Virus genome (UHGV): UHGV-0077406
Direction: 5' to 3' (one strand)
DNA length: 16,665 nt
Origin: a virus
Within the stretch, counting starts at the first letter, position 1. The number at the start of each line of letters is the position of its first letter. Under the pieces are notes generated by a model, which did no database searches, was not told where the DNA came from, and worked only from the letters and a program-made list of their open reading frames with translations. The position numbers and the translations under genes were made by a program. Shown here piece by piece: positions 1 to 15,667 of the stretch.

Positions 1-1
1 C

Positions 2-298
2 TCAGTCATTACTGATAGCGCCATAGCGTGAGCGGTAATTACGCAGGCGCGGGTCGATATATTCAGGGAATTTGTCTATTGTCGCTTTTCGCAACGGTCT
101 CATTGCTGTTTCGTTTGTTCGGTCCTTCTCCTGTTTTAGCGCGAGTTGTATATCGCGTCGGTACATCCGTTCTGCTTTTGTTTCTGGTGTCAGAGCAAGA
201 AACGCGTCGAAATTGTTTTTGATATTTTCCAGCACCTCCGCCTTGGAGCTACCGGAGCAATTGCGCGGGTCATCCGCACCATACAGAGGCGCTGGCAT
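2..298 (-). CDS. Hypothetical phage protein, partial (start codon at 298; C-terminus runs off the window edge)
   Basis: 98-aa ORF with ATG at 298 and no stop before the window edge; co-oriented and tightly packed downstream of the recombination module. No motif I can recognise. Confidence 0.4.
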   Translation of the reverse strand: MPAPLYGADDPRNCSGSSKAEVLENIKNNFDAFLALTPETKAERMYRRDIQLALKQEKDRTNETAMRPLRKATIDKFPEYIDPRLRNYRSRYGAISND

Positions 299-321
299 AA
301 TGGGAGCCTTATTTTCAATAA

Positions 322-909
322 TCAGAAAGGAGGGTAATCGTTCTGGCTGTAACCATAATCATCTGCATGATTATGGCTTACGTTTTTAGAGCGATTGTCT
401 TTATCTTTGAGGCTGGCAACCATGTTGGCGATAGTTTCTGGTTGCTTGCCTTCCGCCTTTTCTTTAAGGGTTTGACCTGTTTGTGCAATAAACGGGATGC
501 GTATTTCCATCTGGTAGCTGTCTGCGCCAGTCTTTTTGTTTGTGGTTAATACTTTCTGGAGCACTAACCCGATTTTCTTTCCATGAAATTCAGGTGCAAC
601 AAATTTACTGGCGGAAACCATATGCTGCGTTAATTGTCCAATCCCAGCACACCCCATCATGGCGTGAACGACATTTGCGCCAAATTTGTTTTCCGTTCCG
701 TCATTTTTCTGAACACAGACGCTAAGATATTGGATTTTACGGCCGTCGTCGGATTCGCCAGAAAACTCAATAAATTTGGCTCCTTTTTCTGATTGCTTTA
801 GTTCTGCTTCAGTAATGGTAATGATATGGGCGCCAGTTTCGTTAATAAAACCACCTTGCCCTGCGGTCAGTGCTGCTTCTTCGTTATAAGTAAAAATCAC
901 GTTGCTCAT
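322..909 (-). CDS. Phage protein, probable SSB-like partner of the Sak4-type ATPase (DUF669-like)
   Basis: 195-aa ORF whose start overlaps the stop of the upstream ATPase gene (906/909), indicating translational coupling. Assignment rests on synteny with Sak4 (AAA_24) modules, not on a motif. Confidence 0.5.
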   Translation of the reverse strand: MSNVIFTYNEEAALTAGQGGFINETGAHIITITEAELKQSEKGAKFIEFSGESDDGRKIQYLSVCVQKNDGTENKFGANVVHAMMGCAGIGQLTQHMVSASKFVAPEFHGKKIGLVLQKVLTTNKKTGADSYQMEIRIPFIAQTGQTLKEKAEGKQPETIANMVASLKDKDNRSKNVSHNHADDYGYSQNDYPPF

Positions 910-1586
910 GCGGCGTTTTCCTTAATTTGATGAACATTATTGATGCCGTAGTAATCACAAACAGTGGCATCGACGAAAGAGAGATCGTTATCAATCTCAT
1001 TGGAATCAAACATTCCCATTGGGGATTTGACAGTGTCTGCACCGTTGTTTTTCGTGGTGAAAAAGAACTGGTCATCGCGGGTAAGAGTGCGAAGAACTAT
1101 AGTAAACATGCCTTCGACAGTGATTTTCTCGTCCAGCATTTTGCCGATAGTTTTCATTTTCACGCGCCCCATAGGGGTTTCTTCGGTATGTGCAAGAAAA
1201 TAGACTCTCAGGTCATCAGGTGCATCCTGTGCAGCCTTAATCACCTCCCATGCGTGGCGGCCTATCTCAGTGAATTTATCAAACGATTTTTCTTCTGAGC
1301 GGCGCATAAACTCATTGCTCATCACATACTGGAAGTCATCAACAATAACGATTCTTTTCCCGTATTCGTGAGCACGCTTAATTACGGCAACTATTACGTC
1401 CCATTTGTCAGTGGTAACTACGGTTCCTTTTTTTGCTCTGGCATCCCATGCCAGCCAGTCTTTTGATTTAAATGGAAGCGGCTTGCCTATTGGTTTTATA
1501 AGTATTGCTTCCTCTGGATTGATATTTCTCATGCTGGTTGATTTTCCGGTGCCAGATTCACCGAGTATTAATGTCGCAGTTCCCAT
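906..1586 (-). CDS. Sak4-like RecA-fold ATPase (single-strand annealing / recombination module)
   Basis: N-terminal Walker A 'GESGTGKS' and hydrophobic stretch ending in DD ('RIVIVDDF', Walker B-like); about 226 aa as in phage Sak4/AAA_24 proteins; sits where lambda carries bet/exo. Confidence 0.65.
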   Translation of the reverse strand: MGTATLILGESGTGKSTSMRNINPEEAILIKPIGKPLPFKSKDWLAWDARAKKGTVVTTDKWDVIVAVIKRAHEYGKRIVIVDDFQYVMSNEFMRRSEEKSFDKFTEIGRHAWEVIKAAQDAPDDLRVYFLAHTEETPMGRVKMKTIGKMLDEKITVEGMFTIVLRTLTRDDQFFFTTKNNGADTVKSPMGMFDSNEIDNDLSFVDATVCDYYGINNVHQIKENAA

Positions 1587-1594
1587 AATTTGCC

Positions 1595-1795
1595 TCAGAA
1601 TGGTAATTCGGATGGGGAGGAAAGAAACTCACGCTCATTCATGCGCTCTCTTTGTGCCTGCCATAAGCAAAGTTGTTTCTTTGATTTATCTCCCGCTTTA
1701 CGCCAGTAACGAGCCTCAGCAATGTGATATTCTCTTTTTAATCGACTTAACTCTGGAGTTTTCGCCAGTTCTACCGGAATCATTTTGACCTCCAT
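1595..1795 (-). CDS. Small hypothetical early protein (66 aa)
   Basis: ORF between the Kil-like gene and the ATPase gene, same strand, start overlapping the upstream gene's stop. No recognisable motif. Confidence 0.4.
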   Translation of the reverse strand: MEVKMIPVELAKTPELSRLKREYHIAEARYWRKAGDKSKKQLCLWQAQRERMNEREFLSSPSELPF

Positions 1796-1893
1796 TTTCT
1801 GTAGGCTTCGACGGCCTCACGAAACATCTTTTCATCGCCAATAAAAGCGGCGATAGTGAATTTAGTCTGGATAGCCATAAGTGTTTTATCCAT
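1780..1893 (-). CDS. kil: Kil-like small protein (37 aa; host cell-division inhibitor family)
   Basis: Internal ATG at 1893 preceded by AGGAG; product 'MDKTLMAIQTKFTIAAFIGDEKMFREAVEAYRKWRSK' resembles lambda Kil as I recall it; lies immediately downstream of cIII as in lambda. The longer 79-aa reading lacks a credible RBS. Confidence 0.5.
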   Translation of the reverse strand: MDKTLMAIQTKFTIAAFIGDEKMFREAVEAYRKWRSK

Positions 1894-2026
1894 TCTTTGG
1901 GACTCCTGGCTGATTAAGTATGTCGATAAGGCGTTTCCATCCGTCACGTAATTTACGGGTGATTCGTTCAAGTAAAGATTCGGAAGGGCAGCCAGCAACA
2001 GGCCACCCTGCAATGGCATATTGCAT
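1886..2026 (-). CDS. cIII: CIII (FtsH/HflB protease inhibitor that stabilises CII)
   Basis: ATG at 2026 preceded by AAGGAG; product 'MQYAIAGWPVAGCPSESLLERITRKLRDGWKRLIDILNQPGVPKNG' is near-identical to lambda CIII over the conserved core. The 80-aa extended reading from 2128 is rejected. Confidence 0.85.
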   Translation of the reverse strand: MQYAIAGWPVAGCPSESLLERITRKLRDGWKRLIDILNQPGVPKNG

Positions 2027-2085
2027 GGTGTGCTCCTTATTTATACATAACGAAAAACGCCTCGAGTGAAGCGTTATTGGTATGC

Positions 2086-2113
2086 ATATAAAAAGGCCCT
2101 CACACTGGAGGGC
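2086..2113 (-). terminator. Putative rho-independent terminator (minus strand)
   Basis: 6-bp GC-rich stem GCCCTC/GAGGGC with 6-nt loop; on the minus strand it is followed by TTTTTATAT. Confidence 0.45.
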
Positions 2114-2230
2114 AAAGAAGATTTCCAATAATCAGAACAAGTCGGCTCCTGTTTAGTTACGAGCGACATTGCTCCGTGTATTCACTCGTTGGAATGAATA
2201 CACAGTGCAGTGTTTATTCTGTTGTTTATG

Positions 2231-2258
2231 CCAAAAATAAAGGCCGACTATGCGGCCT
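2231..2258 (-). terminator. Rho-independent terminator after the SieB-like gene
   Basis: Stem AGGCCG/CGGCCT (6 bp, 6-nt loop) followed on the minus strand by TTATTTTTGG; lies 5 nt downstream of the stop of the 149-aa ORF. Confidence 0.6.
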
Positions 2259-2262
2259 GAAA

Positions 2263-2712
2263 TTACTTAACCAATGATGCTGCATATTCGATAAGGTAAA
2301 GCTTTGGGGCCAGCCAAATTTTTAACCAAGTCATATTGGTTACTACACCAATAATAAAAATCCCCCACAGAGTCAAAACTCCAACCAATGGCATGATAAG
2401 AAGATTAATATCACCTTTGCTATCCCAAACCATTGTCGGCCTGTATTTGGGATTTCCTTTCTCCCATGAATATCCTTCATCACCGATTTTACCTGTCTCA
2501 ACTCTTTGGCACTGCTTCTTCATAAACCAGAAAACCAGTGGGATTGTTAGAATGGCCATTAATGTTTTAATCAGACTGTCAACCATATTCCATAGCAGCA
2601 ACTGATGAACAACATCAGGAATCTGTGCCTGGCTAAATGAAACAGCCGCGTCTATTCCATTACTGGCTTTTTGCAGTAGTTCTACGAGAATCTTGTTTGC
2701 TTGTTCTTCCAT
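2263..2712 (-). CDS. Small inner-membrane protein with two predicted TM helices; possible superinfection-exclusion protein (SieB-like)
   Basis: 149-aa ORF with two hydrophobic segments ('LMAILTIPLVFWFM', 'LLIMPLVGVLTLWGIFIIGVV'); occupies the sieB position of the lambda pL operon between N and cIII; own terminator downstream. Function inferred from position. Confidence 0.45.
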   Translation of the reverse strand: MEEQANKILVELLQKASNGIDAAVSFSQAQIPDVVHQLLLWNMVDSLIKTLMAILTIPLVFWFMKKQCQRVETGKIGDEGYSWEKGNPKYRPTMVWDSKGDINLLIMPLVGVLTLWGIFIIGVVTNMTWLKIWLAPKLYLIEYAASLVK

Positions 2713-2851
2713 ATATCACCTTGATTGTAATAAGCATGAAATTATTTACGGACAAAAATAAAGGCCACCATCAGGCAGCCTTGTAGTTCTGTTTACCAAG
2801 TTCTCTGGCAATCATTGTCGTCGTTCGTATTGTCCACACCATTGATTTGTA

Positions 2852-2996: not shown

Positions 2997-3380
2997 TCAC
3001 CTCGCCGTCAGTTGTTTTGATTTCCGGTAGCCTGCCGCGTAAATGGCTACGTTTGGAAGACATACACCAGTTTCTGGTTGCCTATGCCCAAACTCATTCG
3101 CGTACACAATGGCCGCTCTCTCCAGATTGCGTCTGTATTCTTTCTGTTGCCAGATCACGTCCTGTGCCATGAACTTAATTGGCTTAGCGTCTTCTATGCG
3201 CTCAGGCGTTTCGTGTTTACCTTTAGCCTGAATCTGTGCCAGACTGAGGGTAGGGCGGTGTAATACTTCTGAACTTATTGCTTCTTCGCGGGCCAGCACG
3301 CCGTTAGCTAATGCCTTTGCCTTTAAACGCTCACGACGACGAGAACGTGAATTGCCTTTGAACTGAGTTCTGCGTGTCAT
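2997..3380 (-). CDS. N: N-family transcription antiterminator (non-lambda specificity)
   Basis: First gene downstream of pL/nutL; AGGAGG RBS; N-terminal arginine-rich motif 'TRRTQFKGNSRSRRRERLKAKA'; 127 aa. Sequence differs from lambda N, so this gene lies outside the lambda-derived immunity segment. Confidence 0.7.
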   Translation of the reverse strand: MTRRTQFKGNSRSRRRERLKAKALANGVLAREEAISSEVLHRPTLSLAQIQAKGKHETPERIEDAKPIKFMAQDVIWQQKEYRRNLERAAIVYANEFGHRQPETGVCLPNVAIYAAGYRKSKQLTAR

Positions 3381-3545
3381 ATAGACCTCCTGATGAACTT
3401 TGGTGGTGTGGTAGGTGGGAGACCCATTTCGACCTGTTTCGGCCTACTTCAATTCGGCAATAGTCCCGCAGGCCTCGCCGCTTTACGTGCGACATATTCC
3501 CGTCCATGAACCCTTCACCACACCCCAAAGTTCACTTTGGTTATT

Positions 3546-3560
3546 GCGCTTTGTCAGCGC
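3546..3560 (-). promoter_or_regulatory. nutL boxB hairpin (P22-type GCGCUGACAAAGCGC)
   Basis: Minus-strand transcript reads GCGCTGACAAAGCGC, a 5-bp stem with GACAA loop, in the pL leader upstream of N; the same loop type recurs at nutR. Confidence 0.55.
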
Positions 3561-3628
3561 CGTAGATTCATATTCGAATCGTTGTATATTCACCGCCCTG
3601 GTGAGTAGTGCGTCCTGCTGATGTGTTT

Positions 3629-3691
3629 AGTATCACCGCCAGTGGTATTTATGTCAACACCGCTAGAGATAATTAATCACCGCAGATGGTT
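3629..3691 (-). promoter_or_regulatory. pL promoter with operators OL1 (3631-3647), OL2 (3655-3671), OL3 (3675-3691)
   Basis: Lambda operator sequences read directly: TATCACCGCCAGTGGTA, CAACACCGCTAGAGATA, AATCACCGCAGATGGTT. On the minus strand, -35 TTGACA (3652-3657) and -10 GATACT (3629-3634) are spaced as in lambda pL. Confidence 0.85.
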
Positions 3692-3833
3692 ATCTGTATG
3701 TTTTTTATATGAATTTATTTTTTGCAGGGGGCATTGTTTGGTAGGTGAGAGATCTGAATTGCTATGTTTAGTGAGTTGTATCTATTAATTTTCAAATAAA
3801 TACAATTGGTTATGTGTTTTTTTTGGGGGGGTA

Positions 3834-3862
3834 GGCAAAGAAAACCCGGCTCGGTGGCCGGG
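3834..3862 (-). terminator. Rho-independent terminator ending the cI-distal cassette
   Basis: Stem CCCGGC/GCCGGG (6 bp, 6-nt loop) followed on the minus strand by TTTTCTTTG, starting 8 nt after the stop of the 310-aa gene. Confidence 0.6.
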
Positions 3863-3869
3863 TGAGATA

Positions 3870-4802
3870 TTAAAGAACCGATTTAACAAGATGGTTTTTA
3901 CGGTACAGACCTATGCGATCATTGTGAATCTCAGTAGTCTCCACTAAAAGAGAAACAATCTGTCCGACCTTGTGTTTTTTTTGTATTAAATCTAGCATTT
4001 CAATCGGATAGGAAGCCTTTAAATGTTCACCACCAACATCAAGCTCCAGCTTCCCATATTTGGATAGAACGACCAGTTCGCCTGTAACCGTTTCAGTAAT
4101 GGGAGGGGATGAAATGGTTGATGTAAGTCTACTCACCAAGTACTTAATTTTATTGGAGTCAATAGTTGCCACCTTGGTGCCATTACTAAATGGACCGGTC
4201 CAACTTGCATCAAATGTTAAGTTGTGTTTATCGCATTCCTCTACGATTCTCTTAAGGCTTACAGTGGAATTGTATCCAATTTCAGCGACGTGATTCATGA
4301 AGTTGTTGTCGTCATCGCTTAACAACAAATCGAATATGCCTTTTACAGCCTTGCTGGGTACTGTTTCTACTAATTCTGCTATTCCTGTAGAGAAGGTGAC
4401 GCCCAATTTTGTAGACCCAGGGGATAAATCAGCCAGCCTGAGGTTTAAGGAGCTTTTCACGTCGTAGGGAACTTTTTTTGAGTCCTTGCCTGAGGCAATT
4501 TTGTGTGTTGCTCTTTGTATTAGCGCTGCAAGATTTGTTGAAATAGCCCCAAGCAGCTCTAAAGGAATAGAGCCAAAGTCAACCTCAGAGCCTTTCAGCC
4601 GCAGCTCAAAAAAATCGATAAGTGGGTGCCGACTATCTTGCTTTAATTTTTCGGCCTTCAAATCGCTCAGATGAGAATCCATGGAGCGATAAAGAAGCAT
4701 GTCAGCAAAGGACCTGGTTTTGTTTTGCTTCATTGCATCGACTTCTTTTTGAATGAAATCAATGCGTTTATCGCAATTTTTAAACATTGATTTATCATTC
4801 AT
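3870..4802 (-). CDS. Hypothetical 310-aa protein; second gene of the two-gene cassette in the rexAB-equivalent slot (candidate effector or sensor)
   Basis: Long AT-rich ORF; start at 4802 overlaps the stop of the upstream gene as ATGA; no TM segments and no catalytic motif I can recognise; unrelated to RexA or RexB as I recall them. Confidence 0.6.
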   Translation of the reverse strand: MNDKSMFKNCDKRIDFIQKEVDAMKQNKTRSFADMLLYRSMDSHLSDLKAEKLKQDSRHPLIDFFELRLKGSEVDFGSIPLELLGAISTNLAALIQRATHKIASGKDSKKVPYDVKSSLNLRLADLSPGSTKLGVTFSTGIAELVETVPSKAVKGIFDLLLSDDDNNFMNHVAEIGYNSTVSLKRIVEECDKHNLTFDASWTGPFSNGTKVATIDSNKIKYLVSRLTSTISSPPITETVTGELVVLSKYGKLELDVGGEHLKASYPIEMLDLIQKKHKVGQIVSLLVETTEIHNDRIGLYRKNHLVKSVL

Positions 4803-5278
4803 AAAAAAATCCTCACTAACCCTTTCGGGTTTTCACTGCGATCAAAACCAAACCAACCGCGCCAGTAGCTACGCCAGTACTCATAATCATAGTTAGGGTC
4901 ATCTAAATTCTTCATGAGTAGTAGGACATCAATTTTGTAGTTTTGTTTGATGTAGTTTCGGTCAAGCAAATTATCGACGCGGCCCCGAAGCATGACAGGT
5001 ATTGAGTTTATATTGCTATAGTCACATACCAACAAAATATCAATATCATCAGGCTCTGGTTTAGACGTGGTGTATGAACCATCAACCCATATTTCTGTAA
5101 AACAGCCATATTGAGCAGATAATTCTCGAATAGATTCGAGTAGCTGTATAAAATTACAGTATAGCATGCCTCGCCTGGATGATGAAGGAAAGCAATCGAC
5201 ACAATACGATTTTAATCCAGCTTCATCCATGTCATGGAACCCTGGCTCAAACAGGGGTGGGTAATTAATTTTATCCAT
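4799..5278 (-). CDS. Minimal pol-beta-superfamily nucleotidyltransferase (MNT/SMODS-like), 159 aa; first gene of the cassette
   Basis: Signature 'VDGSYTTSKPEPDDIDILLV' matches the hG[GS]-x9-Dh[DE]h NTase motif, with a possible third acidic residue in 'LLLMKNLDD'; Cys-rich N-terminus; co-oriented with cI and 149 nt downstream of its stop. Confidence 0.6.
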   Translation of the reverse strand: MDKINYPPLFEPGFHDMDEAGLKSYCVDCFPSSSRRGMLYCNFIQLLESIRELSAQYGCFTEIWVDGSYTTSKPEPDDIDILLVCDYSNINSIPVMLRGRVDNLLDRNYIKQNYKIDVLLLMKNLDDPNYDYEYWRSYWRGWFGFDRSENPKGLVRIFL

Positions 5279-8015: not shown

Positions 8016-10922
8016 ATGACGCCAAGTGAACTTAGCGACCTGCTTTGGGCGCAGGTTGACAGGGTGGCTCCGCACCTGTTGCCAAACGGCAAGAAAGAGG
8101 GGCATGAGTGGGTTGCCGGTAACATCAACGGTGACAAGGGAAACAGCCTTAAGGTCAACCTTAGCGGCAAGAAAAAATGGGCTGATTTCGCCGAGGGAGA
8201 CGGCGGTGACATGCTTGATTTGTGGATGGCATGTCGTGGAATTAACCTGCATCAGGCTATGCAGGAAGCGAAAGCATTTCTCGGTATCAAGGATGACGAT
8301 CACCATTTCGATGCCAGACGTGAGAAAAAATTCTCCAGACCTGATCGCAAGAAAATCGCCCGCTACGTTACCAGAACAGAATCCCATCTTGAGTACCTGC
8401 AATCGCGTGGCATATCGCCAGAAATCGTAAAGCGCTACGAGGTTGTCAGCGGCAAGGTGTGGAATGGAGAGCGGGAACTGGATGCTCTGGTGATTCCGTA
8501 CAAACGCGATGGTGAGTTGTTGCAGGTCAAGCGAATCAGCACTGAGCGCCCGGACGGGAAGAAAGTCATTATGGCAGAAGGTGATTGCGAACCTTGCCTG
8601 TTCGGATGGCAGGCTCTGGACGCTGGCGTGAGGGCGGTTGTGCTTTGCGAAGGCGAAATTGATTGTATGAGCTATGCGCAATACGGCATCTCGGCGTTAT
8701 CCGTGCCGTTTGGTGGCGGGAAAGGCGCTAAGCAACAGTGGATTGAGTTTGAGTATCACAACCTCGACAGGTTTGAGGAAATATTCATCTCGATGGACGT
8801 TGATGATGTTGGTCGTGAAGCCGCAAGGGAAATCGCAAGCCGACTCGGTGAACATCGTTGCCGTCTTGTTACTCTGCCGTACAAAGACATCAACGAATGC
8901 CTGATGAACGGTGTTACCGAGGATGAAATCTGGCAGTACATCGGCACGGCATCCTACTTCGATCCTGAAGAACTCTACAGCGCGCGAGAGTTTTACCAGG
9001 ACACTATCAACGCTTTCTACGGCAAGCAGCAGTATCTGTTTAATCCACCGTGGGAATCTCTGGCAGATAAATTCCAGTTCCGTGAGGCAGAGTTGACGCT
9101 GGTCAATGGTGTGAACGGTCACGGAAAAGCCTGTCCACTTGATGAACCAATTCTGCTCGCTAATGGTGAATGGACTACTCACGGGGATGTAAAAATTGGC
9201 GATCAGGTGGCATCAGTAGACGGCAATCCGTCAACTGTCACCGGGATATTCCCGCAGGGTGTTAGAGATGTTTACCGAGTCACATTTGAAGATGGTCGTT
9301 ATGTTGATTGCGCAGGCGATCACCTATGGGAGGTCACTAGTCGTGGATTCACGAAAGGCGAGAAGCGCCGCGTGATAGACACCTTCGAGCTGAAACGGTT
9401 GAGTGAAACGAAGAGGCACAAAAATGGCGTCAGGATACCCGAAATAACTGGTGACTTTGGCGACCACTCAGAGCCATTAGCATGGGTTATCGGCTCCCTT
9501 CTCGGGGATGGTAGTCTTAGCAATGGGAGCGTGAAGTTTTCAAACGTCGAGCCATACATGATCGAGCGTATGAAGGCTGAACTGCCTGATTACAACTTTT
9601 CTGGAGATGGTAAGGACTGGCTGATATCAACGGCGCGTGGTCAGGTAAATCCACTCATGGAGACCCTGCGAGTTTATGGACTAATGGGGTGCACAGCAAA
9701 AAACAAATTCATCCCTCGTGTGTTTTTTTCCGCAAACAAATCAACGCGTATAGGAATGCTGTGTGGTCTGCTTGAAACGGATGGTTATGTCGAGAAGGAT
9801 GGAACGCTTGTTTTTTCCTCAGCAAGTGAAGAACTGCGTAATGGGGTTGTTCAACTGGTTAACTCACTCGGCGGTTCATGCCGGACGCGAGTTAAAACTG
9901 GCGTGACATACACATACAAGGGCGATAAGCGGCATGGGATGGATTCATATGAGGCAAGGATACGACTGACAAGGGAAATCAGGGAGGCCATCCGTTCACC
10001 ACGACTCAATGGCAGATTAACTGCGCATCGATTCGAGGGGTGTGGGGTATTCGTCAGGAATGTTGAAAAAATCGGCAATGCAGAATGCTTGTGTATCATG
10101 GTCGATCACCCTCGCCACCTGTATGTAACCAGAGGATATGTGGCAACGCATAACACCGAGGTTGTCGGGCATATGGCGCTTGAGGCAATGCGTCAGGGTG
10201 TGAAGACGTGCATCGCGTCACTTGAGCTGAAGCCTGGTATTCTCCTTAAGCGCCTTACCCGTCAGGCGACGTGCTGCAAGATGCCGCCAGTGCTGGAAAT
10301 TGACTCTGCATTTAAATTTTATGACGAAAGACTTTGGGTGTTTGGCCTGACCGGAACGGCGAAAGCCGACAGGCTGATCGAAATATTCGACTACGCTCGC
10401 CGCCGATACGGGATCCAGTTATTCATCATCGACAGCCTGATGAAATGTGGCATAGGCGACGATGACTATAACGGGCAGAAGGCGTTTGTTGACTCGATTT
10501 GCGACTTCAAAAACAAAACAAACTCCCACGTCATTCTCGTTACTCACTCGCGAAAAGGAGACAGCGAAGAAAAACCAACCGGGAAAATGGACGTAAAAGG
10601 CTCTGGAGCGATAACAGACCTGACAGACAACCTTTTCATCATCTGGCGTAACAAGGCTCGCGAGAGAGCGTTACAGAGAGTTCAGAGTGGTGAAAAGATG
10701 TCAGAGAAGGACGAACAGCTACTGGCATCTCCGGCATCTGTTTTGATGCTTGAAAAACAACGTAACGGCGAAGGTTGGGAAGGTGGTGTCCCGTTGTTCC
10801 TTGACGAGCAATCGCACCAGTTCCTGCAACTTGAATCAGGATCGCCATATAGCTACATCGCCAATATGCCGAAATCGGAATATGACGAGGCGTGGCGACA
10901 GGAAAACGTGACGGAGTATTAA
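8016..10922 (+). CDS. Bifunctional DNA primase / replicative helicase (Toprim primase plus RecA-fold helicase) interrupted by an in-frame intein
   Basis: Toprim motifs ('VVLCEGEIDCMS', 'SMDVDDVGREAA'); helicase Walker A 'LVNGVNGHGK' and Walker B-like 'QLFIIDSL'; 968 aa. A 341-aa intein sits in the P-loop. Occupies the position of lambda P. Confidence 0.85.
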   Translation: MTPSELSDLLWAQVDRVAPHLLPNGKKEGHEWVAGNINGDKGNSLKVNLSGKKKWADFAEGDGGDMLDLWMACRGINLHQAMQEAKAFLGIKDDDHHFDARREKKFSRPDRKKIARYVTRTESHLEYLQSRGISPEIVKRYEVVSGKVWNGERELDALVIPYKRDGELLQVKRISTERPDGKKVIMAEGDCEPCLFGWQALDAGVRAVVLCEGEIDCMSYAQYGISALSVPFGGGKGAKQQWIEFEYHNLDRFEEIFISMDVDDVGREAAREIASRLGEHRCRLVTLPYKDINECLMNGVTEDEIWQYIGTASYFDPEELYSAREFYQDTINAFYGKQQYLFNPPWESLADKFQFREAELTLVNGVNGHGKACPLDEPILLANGEWTTHGDVKIGDQVASVDGNPSTVTGIFPQGVRDVYRVTFEDGRYVDCAGDHLWEVTSRGFTKGEKRRVIDTFELKRLSETKRHKNGVRIPEITGDFGDHSEPLAWVIGSLLGDGSLSNGSVKFSNVEPYMIERMKAELPDYNFSGDGKDWLISTARGQVNPLMETLRVYGLMGCTAKNKFIPRVFFSANKSTRIGMLCGLLETDGYVEKDGTLVFSSASEELRNGVVQLVNSLGGSCRTRVKTGVTYTYKGDKRHGMDSYEARIRLTREIREAIRSPRLNGRLTAHRFEGCGVFVRNVEKIGNAECLCIMVDHPRHLYVTRGYVATHNTEVVGHMALEAMRQGVKTCIASLELKPGILLKRLTRQATCCKMPPVLEIDSAFKFYDERLWVFGLTGTAKADRLIEIFDYARRRYGIQLFIIDSLMKCGIGDDDYNGQKAFVDSICDFKNKTNSHVILVTHSRKGDSEEKPTGKMDVKGSGAITDLTDNLFIIWRNKARERALQRVQSGEKMSEKDEQLLASPASVLMLEKQRNGEGWEGGVPLFLDEQSHQFLQLESGSPYSYIANMPKSEYDEAWRQENVTEY
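9132..10154 (+). mobile_element. Intein with double-motif LAGLIDADG homing endonuclease, inserted in the helicase Walker A loop
   Basis: Begins with Cys ('CPLDEPILLANG'), ends 'VATHN' followed by Thr (+1 nucleophile); two LAGLIDADG blocks ('LAWVIGSLLGDGSL', 'IGMLCGLLETDGYV'); 1023 nt in frame. The N-terminal boundary could be one codon earlier (Ala at 9129), which would restore a canonical GHGKT. Confidence 0.75.
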
Positions 10923-11004: not shown

Positions 11005-11616
11005 ATGCGAATAAAAAAACCAATTGATCACGATGAGCTTCTGTCAACATTATCATATGACTCAGAAACAGGAATATTTAAATGGCTAAAAACAAATTCA
11101 GTAGTAAGAGTAAAAGGTAGTATTGCTGGAGGTGTTAGTGGTGGTTATATATGCATTAGCATAAATAATGTTTTGTATTATGCGCATAGGCTTGCTTGGT
11201 TCTATGTATACAAAAAATGGCCTCCTAAGTTTATTGATCATGTAAATGGGAACAGACTTGACAATAGGATTTCAAATCTAAGACTGGCAACAGAGGAGCA
11301 GAATGCAAGAAACATTGTAGGTAATAGGTTAAACACATCCGGTGCGATTGGAGTGTCTTGGGATAAGACAACTGGCAGGTGGAAGTCTTATGTTGGTTAT
11401 AAAAATAAGACAATATCGTTAGGGTATTTCGATAGCAAAGAAGATGCAGCATTCATAGCAGCACTAGCAAGAAAGAAACTATATGGAACTTATGCGAGTA
11501 AAGCACTTAATTGCGAGCATGAGCTTTTATCTCAATTTAATAATGATGAGGATAAACTTGCGGAATATCTTAAGGAAAAATCTAAAAGGACTCGAAAGCG
11601 TGTTAAAAAAAGATAA
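11005..11616 (+). CDS. HNH homing endonuclease with C-terminal AP2-type DNA-binding domain
   Basis: HNH core 'YYAHRLAWF...IDHVNGNRLDNRISNLRLATEEQNARN' and AP2-like 'GVSWDKTTGRWKSYVGYKNKTISLGYFDSKEDAAFI'; markedly AT-rich relative to flanks; no obvious SD sequence. Confidence 0.8.
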   Translation: MRIKKPIDHDELLSTLSYDSETGIFKWLKTNSVVRVKGSIAGGVSGGYICISINNVLYYAHRLAWFYVYKKWPPKFIDHVNGNRLDNRISNLRLATEEQNARNIVGNRLNTSGAIGVSWDKTTGRWKSYVGYKNKTISLGYFDSKEDAAFIAALARKKLYGTYASKALNCEHELLSQFNNDEDKLAEYLKEKSKRTRKRVKKR

Positions 11617-12298: not shown

Positions 12299-12526
12299 AT
12301 GAGTACGATAGCTGAGCTTGTCCGCGCCGACTTTCAGGAGAACATTGGCCGTGCAAAGCGGTACTGGTCTGCTTCCAGACTTCCTACTGACGAGAGACAG
12401 AAAAGCGCCCCTAAGCCACGGAGCTATCCGCGTGACCGTGTTCTTCGTCGGTTGGTTAAAATCGATAATGATTTTCAGTGTGACAGAATTATCCAGCAAT
12501 TAGATTTGATGACTGATGATGAATGA
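12299..12526 (+). CDS. Hypothetical protein (75 aa), nin-region
   Basis: ORF with GAGGAGG RBS; basic central region; no recognisable motif. Confidence 0.45.
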   Translation: MSTIAELVRADFQENIGRAKRYWSASRLPTDERQKSAPKPRSYPRDRVLRRLVKIDNDFQCDRIIQQLDLMTDDE

Positions 12527-12941
12527 TTTCATTCTGCACGAAACCAATAAATCACAATTCTGGTTAGTTCTGAAACAAATCCTTTCTACCGGCAAGCGCT
12601 GGCGAATCAAAATATCTGAGTACCGTGAGAAGCGTACATTGTCACAAAACAATCTGATGTGGGTGTGGAATGCAGAAATAGCCGCGCAATTATCCGCTGT
12701 TTCTGGTGAAAGTTTTACACCGGAAGAGGTTCATGAGTGGCTGAAAGATATATATTGTCCGGCAAAAAGGGTGACGATTTTTAATATTACACGATGCGTT
12801 AAATCAACACGGCAGCTTGATATTGGAGATATGCACAAGTATCTGACCGATATTGACCAGTGGGCGCATCAGAAGGGATTACGACTAACTATTCCTGATA
12901 ATTGCGAGTACCGGGATCTAAAGGAGAGGCAAGTAGAGTGA
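12516..12941 (+). CDS. ninB: NinB-like recombination protein
   Basis: Contains the 'RTLSQNNLMWVW' motif comparable to lambda NinB 'RSLDQNRKLWAC'; similar size; position in the nin region. Confidence 0.55.
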   Translation: MMNDFILHETNKSQFWLVLKQILSTGKRWRIKISEYREKRTLSQNNLMWVWNAEIAAQLSAVSGESFTPEEVHEWLKDIYCPAKRVTIFNITRCVKSTRQLDIGDMHKYLTDIDQWAHQKGLRLTIPDNCEYRDLKERQVE

Positions 12942-13465
12942 CAATTAAATCAAATACGCCAGCACACGACAAGGACTGCTGGCAAACGCCGCTTTGGCTT
13001 TTTGATGCACTGGATATTGAGTTTGGATTCTGGCTGGATTCGGCAGCGAGCGACAAAAATGCTCTGTGTGCTCACTGGCTAACTGAGGCCGACGACGCGC
13101 TCAATTCTGAGTGGATAAGCCACGGTGCAATCTGGAATAACCCACCGTACAGCAATATCAGGCCGTGGGTGGAAAAAGCCGCTGAGCAGTGCATACAACA
13201 GCGACAGACGGTAGTTATGCTTGTGCCAGAGGATATGTCAGTCGGATGGTTCAGCAAGGCTCTGGAGAGTGTCGACGAAGTTCGCATTATCACTGATGGA
13301 CGGATTAATTTTATCGAACCATCGACAGGGCTGGAGAAGAAGGGAAACAGCAAAGGCTCCATGCTGCTGATTTGGCGACCGTTCATCAGTCCTCGACGGA
13401 TGTTTACTACCGTATCCAAAGCGGCATTGATGGCAATCGGGCAGGGCGTCAGGAGGGCGGCATGA
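12938..13465 (+). CDS. Phage DNA N6-adenine methyltransferase (Dam family, NPPY motif)
   Basis: '[28 protein letters not shown]' and 'IWNNPPYS' match the phage Dam family; GTG start at 12938 overlaps the NinB stop (GTGA). The 187-aa track ORF beginning at 12902 is an upstream in-frame extension. Confidence 0.75.
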
Positions 13466-14042: not shown

Positions 14043-14211
14043 CCCATCCCAATCCCTTCAATACCAGAAAGAAAGCGTCGAGCGAGCTTTAACGTGCGCT
14101 AACTGCGGTCAGAAGCTGCATGTGCTGGAAGTTCACGTGTGTGAGCTCTGCTGTGCAGAACTGATGAGCGATCCGAATAGCTCAATGTACGAGGAAGAAG
14201 ACGATGGCTAA
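14035..14211 (+). CDS. ninF: NinF-like protein (Cys-rich)
   Basis: Internal ATG at 14035; product '[58 protein letters not shown]' resembles lambda NinF as I recall it. Confidence 0.6.
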
Positions 14212-14815
14212 ACCAGCGCGAAGACGATGTAAAAACGATGAATGTCGGGAATGGTTTCACCCTGCATTCGCCAATCAGTGGTGGTGCTCTCCAGAGTGTG
14301 GAACCAAGATAGCACTCGAACGACGAAGCAAAGAACGCGAAAAAGCGGAAAAGGAAGTAGAGAAGAAACGACGACGAGAGGAGCAGAAACAGAAAGATAA
14401 ACTTAAGATTCGAAAACTCGCCTTAAAGCCCCGCAGTTACTGGATTAAACAAGCCCAACAAGCCGTAAACGCCTTCATCAGAGAAAGAGACCGCGACTTA
14501 CCATGTATCTCGTGCGGAACGCTCACGTCTGCTCAGTGGGATGCCGGGCATTACCGGACAACTGCTGCGGCACCTCAACTCCGATTTGATGAACGCAATA
14601 TTCACAAGCAATGCGTGGTGTGCAACCAGCATAAAAGCGGAAATCTCGTTCCGTATCGCGTCGAACTGATTAACCGGATCGGGCAGGAAGCAGTAGACGA
14701 AATCGAATCAAACCATAACCGCCATCGCTGGACTGTCGAAGAGTGCAAGGCGATCAAGGCAGAGTACCAACAGAAACTCAAAGACCTGCGAAATAGCAGA
14801 AGTGAGGCCGCATGA
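14204..14815 (+). CDS. ninG: NinG (Rap) recombination endonuclease
   Basis: Cys-rich N-terminus '[25 protein letters not shown]' and C-terminal 'CISCG...[14 protein letters not shown]' typical of NinG/Rap; overlaps neighbours by ATGA. Confidence 0.8.
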
Positions 14816-15018
14816 CGTTCTCAGTAAAAACCATTCCAGACATGCTCGTTGAAGCATACGGAAACCAGACAGAAGTAGCACGCAGACTGAAATGTAGTCG
14901 CGTTACGGTCAGAAAATACGTTGATGATAAAGACGGGAAAATGCACGCCATCGTCAACGACGTTCTCATGGTTCATCGCGGATGGAGTGAAAGAGATGCG
15001 CTATTACGAAAGAATTGA
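14812..15018 (+). CDS. ninH: NinH-like protein
   Basis: 68-aa ORF whose start overlaps the ninG stop; position and size as lambda NinH. Confidence 0.65.
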
Positions 15019-15667
15019 TGGCAGCAAATACCGAAATATTTGGGTAGTTGGCGATCTGCACGGATGCTACACGAACCTGATGAAAAAACTGGAGACGATA
15101 GGATTCGACACCAAAAAAGACCTGCTTATCTCGGTTGGCGATTTGGTCGATCGCGGTACAGAGAACGTCGAATGCCTGGAATTAATCACATTCCCCTGGT
15201 TCAGAGCTGTACGTGGAAACCATGAGCAAATGATGATTGATGGCTTATCAGAGCGCGGAAACGTCAATCACTGGATGCTTAATGGCGGTGGCTGGTTCTT
15301 TAATCTCGATTACGACAAAGAAATTCTGGCTAAAGCTCTTGCCCATAAAGCAGATGAACTTCCGTTAATCATCGAACTGGTGAGCAAAGATAAAAAATAT
15401 GTCATCTGCCACGCCGATTATCCTTGTGACGAATACGAGTTTGGAAAGCCAGTTGATCATCAGCAGGTAATCTGGAACCGAGAACGAATCAGCAACTCAC
15501 AAGACGGGATCGTGAAAGAAATTAAAGGCGCGGACACGTTCATCTTTGGTCATACGCCAGCAGTGAAACCGCTCAAATTTGCCAACCAGATGTATATCGA
15601 TACCGGCGCAGTGTTCTGCGGAAAGCTCACATTGATTCAGGTACAGGGAGAAGGCGCGTGGGCATAA
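14996..15667 (+). CDS. Ser/Thr protein phosphatase (lambda PPase / NinI)
   Basis: Internal ATG at 14996 with GGAGTGA RBS; metallophosphatase motifs 'GDLHG', 'GDLVDRG', 'GNHE'; near-identical to the lambda phosphatase over the stretch I can recall. Confidence 0.85.

Follow-up and report, generated by a model that had tools for sequence, protein, structure and literature searches.

An HK620-type recombination module with Sak4 and its cognate SSB in the Gam-Beta-Exo position of a lambdoid phage genome

Introduction

What does a lambdoid phage carry after cIII and kil, where lambda encodes gam, bet and exo, and how far do the genes found there fill the same role? The question is raised by a 16,665-nt stretch of viral DNA, here called the window, for which a sequence-only reading had proposed that a Walker A ATPase of Sak4/AAA_24 type and a 195-aa SSB-like partner replace the lambda Red module as an alternative, less studied, single-strand annealing system. 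The locus is almost certainly a recombination (Rec) module of HK620 type, hkaM-sak4-ssb-abc2, in a lambdoid phage or prophage, where it fills the role of Gam, Beta and Exo, and no evidence contradicting this interpretation was found. The HK620 arrangement of a Rad51/RecA-type annealing protein, SSB-2 and Abc2, with no nuclease, is among the recognised lambdoid Rec module types (PMC12315714), and the underlying biology was published between 2010 and 2018 and catalogued again in 2025.

Gene organisation and operon context

The module extends over four genes, hkaM-sak4-ssb-abc2, between positions 2 and 1795 of the window. The two genes at its centre were confirmed in the ORF list of the window, where both lie on the minus strand: sak4, the hkaL homologue, at 906..1586 and ssb, the hkaK homologue, at 322..909. 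The strand is absent from the sequence-only reading. From ORF, PHROG, HK620 identity and AF2/Foldseek evidence, together with Pfam in the case of sak4, the first is predicted to encode a 226-aa RecA-core-only ATP-dependent single-strand annealing protein, and the second its cognate partner, a 195-aa atypical OB-fold single-strand DNA-binding protein. On the minus strand the junction between them reads GCC GCA TGA / ATG AGC AAC, such that the stop codon of sak4 and the start codon of ssb share a 4-nt ATGA overlap (906..909, minus strand), an arrangement that is compatible with translational coupling of the two genes. The overlap in HK620 is alike, with hkaL annotated at locus positions 3501-4181 and hkaK at 4178-4765.

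On either side of this pair lie the two remaining genes of the module, both also on the minus strand. The hkaM homologue (1595..1783) encodes a 62-aa orphan protein, is the first gene of the HK620 Rec module and is the single small gene separating kil from sak4; it was recognised through PHROG 1723 (E=2e-33) and through 61 of 62 residues identical to HK620 HkaM. Its ORF is open back to 1795, and the ATG at 1783 is preceded by GGAGG, a Shine-Dalgarno context. The last gene, which follows ssb, is abc2 (2..298), encoding the 98-aa anti-RecBCD protein 2 and assigned through Pfam PF11043 and PHROG 656. No NCBIfam model matches any of the four module proteins.

The placement downstream of cIII and kil, in the lambda gam-bet-exo slot, proved correct. 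The genes immediately preceding the module in transcriptional order, as in the lambdoid pL operon, are cIII (1886..2026, minus strand; Pfam Lambda_CIII, 103.8 bits) and kil (1780..1893, minus strand, with the HK620-type start; Lambda_Kil, 71.5 bits; ORF open as far as 2019), both in keeping with the HK620 annotation. Further upstream on the same strand are the N gene (2997..3380; N peptide, 57 bits in Pfam) and, from a consensus scan, a candidate pL-like promoter of the form TTGACA-17 nt-GATACT (3629..3657). Four minus-strand hairpins, at 2782..2761, 2258..2241, 2113..2096 and 2075..2056, are tL-like by analogy with the tL annotation of HK620. By comparison with the annotated pL, nutL and tL sites of HK620, the module is presumably transcribed from the pL-like promoter through N and the tL-like hairpins.

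The genes sak4 and ssb are genuine and not chance ORFs, since their products match PHROG profiles at E=3.9e-108 and 3.3e-66, respectively, and share 99.6% and 99.0% identity with annotated proteins of HK620. Could they nonetheless belong to a decaying prophage and be no longer active? In favour of this, similarity between the window and thousands of prophage regions on E. coli chromosomes is only mosaic, and no genome reaches 80% coverage of it. Such decay is very unlikely, however, and was rejected because none of the four module ORFs is truncated and their motifs and C-terminal tail are intact, because N, cI, cro, cII, O, primase/helicase and nin around the module are intact ORFs with strong profile matches, and because JEP4, an isolated phage, and inducible Stx phages carry this module at 98.7-100% identity.

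The Sak4 ATPase

What identifies the ATPase as Sak4? The profile check proposed in the sequence-only reading does succeed, with Pfam AAA_24 scoring 30.2 bits against a cutoff of 27, a marginal pass by 3 bits; the generic family AAA_22 also barely passes, at 27.7 bits against 27. Pfam alone is thus too thin to identify the protein, and the assignment depends on the near-identity to HK620 Sak4 and on the structural match. The translation matches PHROG 2872, 'Sak4-like ssDNA annealing protein', over its full length (E=3.9e-108) and agrees with HK620 HkaL at 225 of 226 residues (99.6%, also in a tblastn search), the sole difference being a conservative one at residue 43, D in the window and E in HK620. 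A motif search on the translation located the Walker A motif (P-loop) GESGTGKS at residues 9-16 (1539..1562, minus strand), with G9, S11, G12, G14 and K15 invariant in 59 homologues, and a Walker B-like IVIVDD at residues 79-84 (1335..1352, minus strand; IVIVDDF at 79-85), in which D83 and D84 are invariant in the same number of homologues.

The AF2 model (pLDDT 89.2, pTM 0.88) finds as its best Foldseek match the solved Sak4 8rc5, a 219-residue chain (E=2.8e-7, TM 0.55), followed by the RAD51 paralogs RAD51D, XRCC2 and RAD51C and then by Rad51, RadA and RecA. Chains of the Rad51/RadA/RecA type are about 300 residues long, and only their core aligns to the model. With its 226 aa, and on the AF2 and Foldseek evidence, Sak4 has the RecA/Rad51 core fold and lacks the additional DNA-binding domain that RecA carries C-terminally and Rad51 and RadA carry N-terminally. 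A phmmer search with Sak4 against the PDB found no chain at E<=1.

The marginal Pfam scores, including the passing of AAA_22, would also suit a generic P-loop NTPase unconnected with recombination, such as a helicase loader, a KaiC/DnaB-like protein or a defence AAA protein, next to which the partner would be unrelated; KaiC and FlaH do appear among the structural matches, and PADLOC gives weak matches to mad8 and PDC-S19. This reading is barely credible, given that the protein is identical at 225 of 226 positions to one with demonstrated annealing and recombineering activity (PMC5928155), that its best structural match is a solved Sak4 and that it sits beside abc2 in the position of a Rec module. 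The identity to HK620 Sak4 effectively refutes a generic AAA ATPase, which was accordingly rejected. A defence system was also rejected, the PADLOC matches on Sak4 being P-loop-level noise, confined to residues 1-23 or scoring 15.9 bits; PADLOC returned nothing for SSB.

The functional expectations for the Sak4 of the window come from HK620, whose Sak4/SSB pair was studied both biochemically and by recombineering (Hutinet et al. 2018, PMC5928155). In that work ssDNA binding and annealing by Sak4 were ATP-dependent, strand exchange was absent in vitro, and sak4 alone raised recombineering 15-fold over background (PMC5928155). From the 99.6% identity we infer that the present Sak4 likewise binds and anneals ssDNA in an ATP-dependent manner and supports RecA-independent oligo recombineering. 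The near-identity of both proteins to this pair bears out the proposal of an alternative single-strand annealing system; the description of it as less studied holds relative to Red and RecET, but results of the recombineering test on practically the same proteins had already appeared in 2018 (PMC5928155).

The SSB partner

The 195-aa partner had been called SSB-like, and this was upheld by profile, identity and fold. It matches PHROG 743, 'single strand DNA binding protein' (E=3.3e-66), and is identical at 193 of 195 positions (99.0%) to HK620 HkaK (SSB-HK620), with E153 and H179 in the window in place of V153 and Q179. Its AF2 model (pLDDT 80, pTM 0.70, with pLDDT of about 85-95 across residues 21-170) has as its best PDB match in Foldseek the OB-fold protein PrgE (8s4s, E=6.9e-5, TMt 0.61), with SsbA, PaSSB, PriB and RPA following at E 0.01-0.3, a range in which the canonical bacterial SSBs are marginal. 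The PDB matches are mostly OB-fold ssDNA binders, and an OB-fold core was therefore assigned. In BFVD the best matches of the model (E 1e-14 to 1e-9) are to DUF669 proteins and to two annotated phage single-stranded DNA-binding proteins, from Roseobacter phage RD-1410W1-01 and Vibrio phage phi50-12.

Membership of DUF669, the second profile check proposed, failed at the level of Pfam: the current DUF669 model (PF05037) gives no match to the partner at E<=0.01, nor does any Pfam family at E<=10, and the canonical bacterial SSB profile (PF00436) is likewise unmatched. Precomputed Pfam entries are blank for 120 of 120 SSB relatives among the matches listed, yet the NCBI title for these relatives is 'DUF669 domain-containing protein', in agreement with the structural neighbours. 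The partner works like and resembles DUF669 proteins, yet is not classed here as a Pfam DUF669 member, and 'SSB-like' is a statement on fold and function. Hutinet et al. also tied HkaK to N4 gp45 by HHsearch (PMC5928155). Against the PDB, phmmer with SSB gave nothing but a spurious match at 0.26, and a profile of 50 SSB homologues gave none at E<=10; for the PDB comparison of Sak4 and SSB, only the comparison of folds is informative.

The last 12 residues of the partner, DYGYSQNDYPPF, are the same as those of HK620 SSB and include the C-terminal NDYPPF tail (residues 190-195; codons at 325..342, minus strand), the terminal F195 of which is at least 90% conserved in 50 homologues. In HK620, deletion of these six residues (delta-6) lowered recombineering 10-fold, and by this deletion the tail is needed to recruit and stimulate Sak4; sak4 with ssb, or the whole module, gave about 210-fold over background, and ssb alone had no effect (PMC5928155). 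Up to 80% of sak4 genes adjoin an ssb (PMC5928155). Single-strand binding and annealing, stimulation by SSB, dependence on the tail and recombineering were all demonstrated with the HK620 proteins, which are one and two substitutions away from those of the window.

Abc2 and the mosaic junction

The Abc2 assignment is firm at the family level, with PF11043 (Anti-RecBCD_p2) aligning residues 1-98 to model positions 1-97 of 97 at 121.7 bits and PHROG 656 matching at E=5.1e-45. The allele is divergent from that of HK620 (HkaJ), with 60 of 98 aa identical (61%) and 72.4% DNA identity, such that a Sak4-SSB pair conserved at 99% is here accompanied by an Abc2 only 61% identical to the HK620 version. 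The mosaic junction with respect to HK620 is located in the first ~35 nt of abc2: at window position 266 and below, differences are dense, the start codon of abc2 occupies 296..298, and from the dense region up to ssb there is a single difference, at position 318.

Two speculative readings can be offered, either of which we consider improbable. Abc2 alleles might be swapped independently, tracking host RecC variants or evading defences that sense inhibition of RecBCD, while Sak4-SSB persists as a fixed, co-adapted cassette; or the three substitutions in Sak4 and SSB might alter activity. The case for a role of Abc2 in the module comes from studies of the P22 protein, since abc2 was without effect on oligo recombineering in the published HK620 assay (PMC5928155). 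The window contains 0 copies of Chi (GCTGGTGG) against 0.41 expected, a length too short for the count to be informative.

A model for module function

The presence of the genes, their order and overlap, the motifs, the folds and the near-identity to HK620 proteins were all obtained directly here. Taken with the published work they suggest the following scheme. Leftward transcription from pL, after N, cIII and kil, would deliver the module under N antitermination. Sak4, as a RecA-core-only ATPase, would bind ssDNA and anneal complementary strands in an ATP-dependent manner. The atypical OB-fold SSB from the adjacent gene would coat ssDNA and, once bound, recruit Sak4 via its NDYPPF tail, leading to strong stimulation of annealing. 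No phage exonuclease is encoded in the module; Abc2 would modify host RecBCD, such that the host enzyme becomes non-destructive and may supply end processing. Together Sak4, SSB and Abc2 would serve recombination and probably also recombination-dependent late replication and concatemer formation.

This last step raises the question of whether the main job of Sak4-SSB is phage DNA replication, through a rolling-circle or recombination-dependent switch and the formation of concatemers, with recombineering as a by-product. There are precedents for such a role: in Staphylococcus phage phi11, Sak4 is essential for growth and genome multimers are barely made without it, and ssb mutants have a similar, milder phenotype (Neamah et al. 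2017, cited in PMC5928155), while lambdoid Rec modules more generally have been tied to the theta-to-sigma replication switch (PMC12315714). We regard replication as the main job as possible but tentative. The literature cited reports no replication phenotype for HK620-type Sak4, and the sequence does not separate the two roles; replication is in any case compatible with an HK620-type Rec module, as the biochemical activity is the same.

Distribution and significance

The module is carried by 195 of 5426 complete E. coli genomes (~3.6%), among them many Stx1a- and Stx2a-converting phages of O157:H7 and O121:H19 strains. RefSeq and GenBank label its genes 'ATP-binding protein', 'AAA family ATPase', 'hypothetical protein' or 'DUF669 domain-containing protein', and a characterised RecA-independent annealing system is therefore hidden under uninformative names in these genomes. 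The reading of the locus is correct, but the module was already known and nothing new is added. It matters little past correct annotation, although it bears on how Stx phages evolve as mosaics and on which recombineering tools to choose.

Comparison with known systems

The closest relative is HK620 (NC_002730), which shares the order cIII-kil-hkaM-hkaL-hkaK-hkaJ and the ATGA overlap, with DNA identity of 96-98.5% over sak4, ssb, hkaM and kil/cIII. Homology is continuous over window positions 1..2219, beyond which only a 64-nt patch in N (2999..3062) is shared; HK620 differs in that the remaining early region of the window, covering immunity and replication, is of another lambdoid type. In phage JEP4 and in the Stx1a/Stx2a-converting phages (such as LC616031 and TL-2011a), positions 1..2200 are 98.0-98.7% identical over the full length, and JEP4 Sak4 is 100% identical to that of the window. 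Their records read 'DNA binding ATPase' or 'hypothetical protein' or lack annotation, and a functional difference is not evident.

How, then, does the module compare with lambda Red, which it had been proposed to replace? The two share their place in the pL operon, following cIII-kil, and their overall role, and the stretch from kil to the window's left end contains no homologue of bet, exo or gam, every ORF there being hkaM, sak4, ssb or abc2; the window ends at abc2, and HK620 has none of the three further downstream in its annotation. The replacement is not, however, the two-gene unit first envisaged but one of four genes, in which Abc2 and not SSB is the Gam counterpart and nothing replaces Exo. 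Both Beta and Sak4 with SSB drive RecA-independent oligo recombineering (PMC5928155), but Beta belongs to the Rad52-like annealases and works without ATP, whereas Sak4 is RecA-like in fold and ATP-dependent, and Gam blocks RecBCD whereas Abc2 modifies it. Sak4 requires a dedicated SSB for full activity, while no SSB involvement had been reported for other phage annealases (PMC5928155).

The P22 module (arf, erf, abc1, abc2) has the same four-gene layout and a homologous abc2, and both modules dispense with a phage exonuclease and rely on RecBCD modified by Abc2 (PMC5928155, PMC12315714). In contrast, P22 Erf is Rad52-like and not RecA-like, and there is no homology between HkaM and HkaK on the one hand and Arf and Abc1 on the other (PMC5928155). 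At greater distance, the RecA-core-only fold of Sak4 is common to staphylococcal Sak4 (8rc5, in complex with SaPI2 Stl), to RAD51 paralogs and to archaeal RadB, with sequence identity of only about 14% and with different hosts and partner proteins. The OB-fold core of SSB is similarly common to the N4 gp45-type and DUF669 phage SSBs and to PrgE of plasmid pCF10, at identities of 13-24%.

Gene organisation of the recombination module

Two overlapping ORFs on the minus strand occupy the position at which the sequence-only reading had placed a Sak4-type ATPase and an SSB-like partner in lieu of lambda Red, a 226-aa ATPase gene, sak4 (906..1586), and a 195-aa partner gene, ssb (322..909), and direct reading of the sequence confirms that the sak4 stop codon and ssb start codon overlap in an ATGA at 906..909. 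The ATPase begins MGTATLILGESGTGKST, and motif searches locate a Walker A sequence, GESGTGKS (residues 9-16), and a Walker B-like sequence, IVIVDD (residues 79-84). The reading of a replacement for Red is supported, with corrections. The pair follows cIII and kil (Pfam Lambda_CIII, 103.8 bits; Lambda_Kil, 71.5 bits), which lie upstream in the direction of transcription, and the unit comprises four genes rather than two. The genes absent from that reading are a homologue of hkaM of phage HK620 (1595..1783/1795, minus strand, a 62-66-aa ORF), between kil and sak4, and the anti-RecBCD gene abc2 (2..298, minus strand, 98 aa; PF11043, 121.7 bits), which follows ssb. Abc2 is the counterpart of Gam, while Exo is without one.

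Farther upstream than cIII and kil are a gene for an N-type antiterminator (2997..3380; N_peptide, 57 bits) and a pL-like promoter, TTGACA-17 nt-GATACT (3657..3629), which is a consensus match only. The module would be transcribed from pL through tL-like hairpins under N antitermination, and the ATGA overlap may couple the translation of ssb to that of sak4. Also present between N and cIII is a 149-aa ORF (2263..2712, minus strand; PHROG 3054, E=4.2e-64) with hydrophobic stretches and terminator-like hairpins on either side (2782..2761 and 2258..2241), which has no match in Pfam or PADLOC. In HK620 roughly this place is taken by hkaQ and by hkaP, a putative superinfection-exclusion gene, but the ORF shares no DNA-level homology with either of them. 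No Chi site is found in the window against 0.41 expected, a count that carries no information at this length.

Identity and predicted folds of the ATPase and its partner

The ATPase passes the proposed AAA_24 check (30.2 bits, cutoff 27), although Pfam support is thin because the generic AAA_22 also passes (27.7 bits, cutoff 27). Its PHROG assignment is 2872, 'Sak4-like ssDNA annealing protein' (E=3.9e-108). The AlphaFold2 model, built on 59 homologues (pLDDT 89.2, pTM 0.88), has as its top PDB match 8rc5 (E=2.8e-7), entitled 'Complex between the RecA-like Sak4 SSAP and the SaPI2 Stl master regulator', followed by RAD51 paralog complexes (BCDX2, CX3), Rad51, RadA, RecA, Dmc1 and KaiC. For a predicted structure, this list is as expected of a protein consisting only of a RecA core. 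Together with near identity to HK620 Sak4, these matches uphold the Sak4-type assignment.

The 195-aa partner belongs to PHROG 743, 'single strand DNA binding protein' (E=3.3e-66). The DUF669 match that had been anticipated was not obtained, with no hit at E<=10 in the Pfam-A copy used, and precomputed Pfam annotations are blank for each of the 120 relatives listed. The NCBI label for the ssb family is nevertheless 'DUF669 domain-containing protein', and the 2018 study of Hutinet et al. equates Pfam DUF669 with the HkaK-type SSB family (PMC5928155). Pfam and PDB sequence/profile searches detect no relation of the partner to canonical SSB. PDB sequence searches with Sak4 and SSB, the latter including a homologue profile, gave no match, nor did NCBIfam for the module proteins, and PADLOC matches to Sak4 and SSB were negligible.

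The SSB model, built on 50 homologues (pLDDT 80, pTM 0.70), has a confident beta-rich core at residues 21-170 and a disordered C-terminus. In the PDB the model best matches PrgE, an OB-fold protein from plasmid pCF10 (E=6.9e-5, TM 0.61 on target), after which come many bacterial SSB, PriB and RPA OB folds at marginal E values of 0.01-0.3. Among viral predicted structures, DUF669 proteins lead together with two annotated phage single-stranded DNA-binding proteins, from Roseobacter phage RD-1410W1-01 and Vibrio phage phi50-12 (best matches, E from 7.6e-14 to 6e-9), in agreement with the HHsearch link between HkaK, the HK620 SSB, and N4 gp45 (Hutinet et al., PMC5928155). As modelled, the partner adopts an OB fold that most closely resembles those of atypical SSBs, which sustains its description as SSB-like. 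These results put into context an apparent disagreement in the literature over the relation of HkaK to SSB, for which the term of Hutinet et al. 2018 is 'distant homolog of SSB' (PMC5928155).

Neighbouring features

Between pL/N and cI, the position of rexAB in lambda, lies a minus-strand cassette of two genes overlapping by 4 nt (310 aa, 3870..4802; 159 aa, 4799..5278), followed by a terminator-like hairpin (3863..3844). In PADLOC its matches are to PDC-M63, a candidate defence system (M63B, E=7.5e-45; M63A, E=1.8e-41). Pfam assigns the 159-aa product to DUF6932 (87.3 bits) and gives no family for the 310-aa product. The cassette probably represents a defence moron of the prophage, sharing its transcript with cI.

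A 968-aa Toprim primase/helicase (8016..10922, plus strand) appears, from its sequence, to be interrupted by an intein that would span residues ~373-713 (about 9132..10154). Cys373, right after a P-loop-like GVNGHGKA, is the first residue of the insert, which ends in HN (712-713) before Thr714. Within it are matches to Hom_end_hint (379-424) and LAGLIDADG_3 (579-632) and two LAGLIDADG-like motifs, LLGDGS (495-500) and LLETDGY (585-591). PHROG 'terminase' matches are limited to residues 368-731. The presence of an intein in a replication gene of a lambdoid prophage may merit separate attention. Directly after this gene is a free-standing HNH endonuclease gene (11005..11616, plus strand; HNH_3, 57.8 bits) with an AP2 DNA-binding domain just under cutoff (32.6 bits), whose product is likely a homing endonuclease.

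The nin region, further along the plus strand, encodes the recombination mediator NinB/Orf (12516..12941; PHROG 72, E=6.2e-34, with a Pfam NinB score under cutoff), an N6-adenine methyltransferase of Dam type (12902..13465; 217.7 bits), NinG/Rap (14204..14815; 304.8 bits) and a Ser/Thr phosphatase (14921..15667; Metallophos). Since the nin region has Orf and Rap, the phage recombination toolkit consists of Sak4, SSB and Abc2 plus these two proteins.

Functional background

The functional data concern the HK620 proteins, which are one (Sak4) and two (SSB) residues away from those of the window. HK620 Sak4 requires ATP for ssDNA binding and for annealing of complementary strands, and HkaK is a bona fide SSB whose final six residues, NDYPPF, are required for Sak4 to bind ssDNA coated with the SSB and for annealing to be stimulated (PMC5928155). 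The proposed recombineering assay with ssDNA oligos is already published for these proteins: relative to background in a recA mutS strain, sak4 alone gave a 15-fold increase, the whole module or sak4 with ssb about 210-fold, and ssb alone no increase; sak4 with abc2 was no better than sak4 alone, and removal of NDYPPF from ssb lowered the value 10-fold below that of sak4 with ssb (PMC5928155). In P22 studies Abc2 binds RecC and alters the behaviour of RecBCD, unlike the block imposed by Gam, and a nuclease is absent from both the HK620 and P22 modules (PMC5928155, PMC12315714). PMC5928155 cites Neamah et al. 2017 for the involvement of staphylococcal Sak4 in late replication and in the formation of concatemers, and the present module might act similarly.

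Comparison with HK620 and distribution

The gene order of HK620, cIII-kil-hkaM-hkaL(Sak4)-hkaK(SSB)-hkaJ(abc2), is that of the window, and hkaL and hkaK share the same 4-nt overlap. In tblastn searches of phage genomes Sak4 is 99.6% identical to HK620 hkaL and 100% to its equivalent in Escherichia phage JEP4. Relative to HK620, with the window residue first, Sak4 is identical at 225/226 positions (D43E), SSB at 193/195 (E153V, H179Q; final 12 residues, DYGYSQNDYPPF, unchanged), HkaM at 61/62 (S60V, numbered on the 66-aa ORF) and Abc2, a divergent allele, at 60/98. DNA homology is unbroken across 1..2219, with identities of 98.5% (sak4), 98.3% (ssb), 96.3% (hkaM), 96.8% (kil/cIII) and 72.4% (abc2). 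The drop in identity lies no more than ~35 nt into abc2 (start codon 296..298): differences are dense from 266 downwards, and the interval from there to ssb holds just one, at 318. Such a junction is typical of lambdoid mosaicism. JEP4 and Stx2a phages carry the same divergent abc2 allele, their identity to the window over 1..2200 being 98-98.7%.

The module is common. Sak4 is at least 99% identical in 64 phage records, mostly Stx1a- and Stx2a-converting phages (tblastn, phage genomes), and of 5426 complete E. coli genomes 195 carry sak4-ssb DNA, 179 of them with at least 80% coverage and in these always on the chromosome. The HK620 module, whose components are given as SSB-2, Abc2 and an annealing protein of the Rad51/RecA type, was listed in 2025 among the recognised lambdoid Rec types (PMC12315714). 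In every respect tested, the module of the window is a member of this HK620 type.
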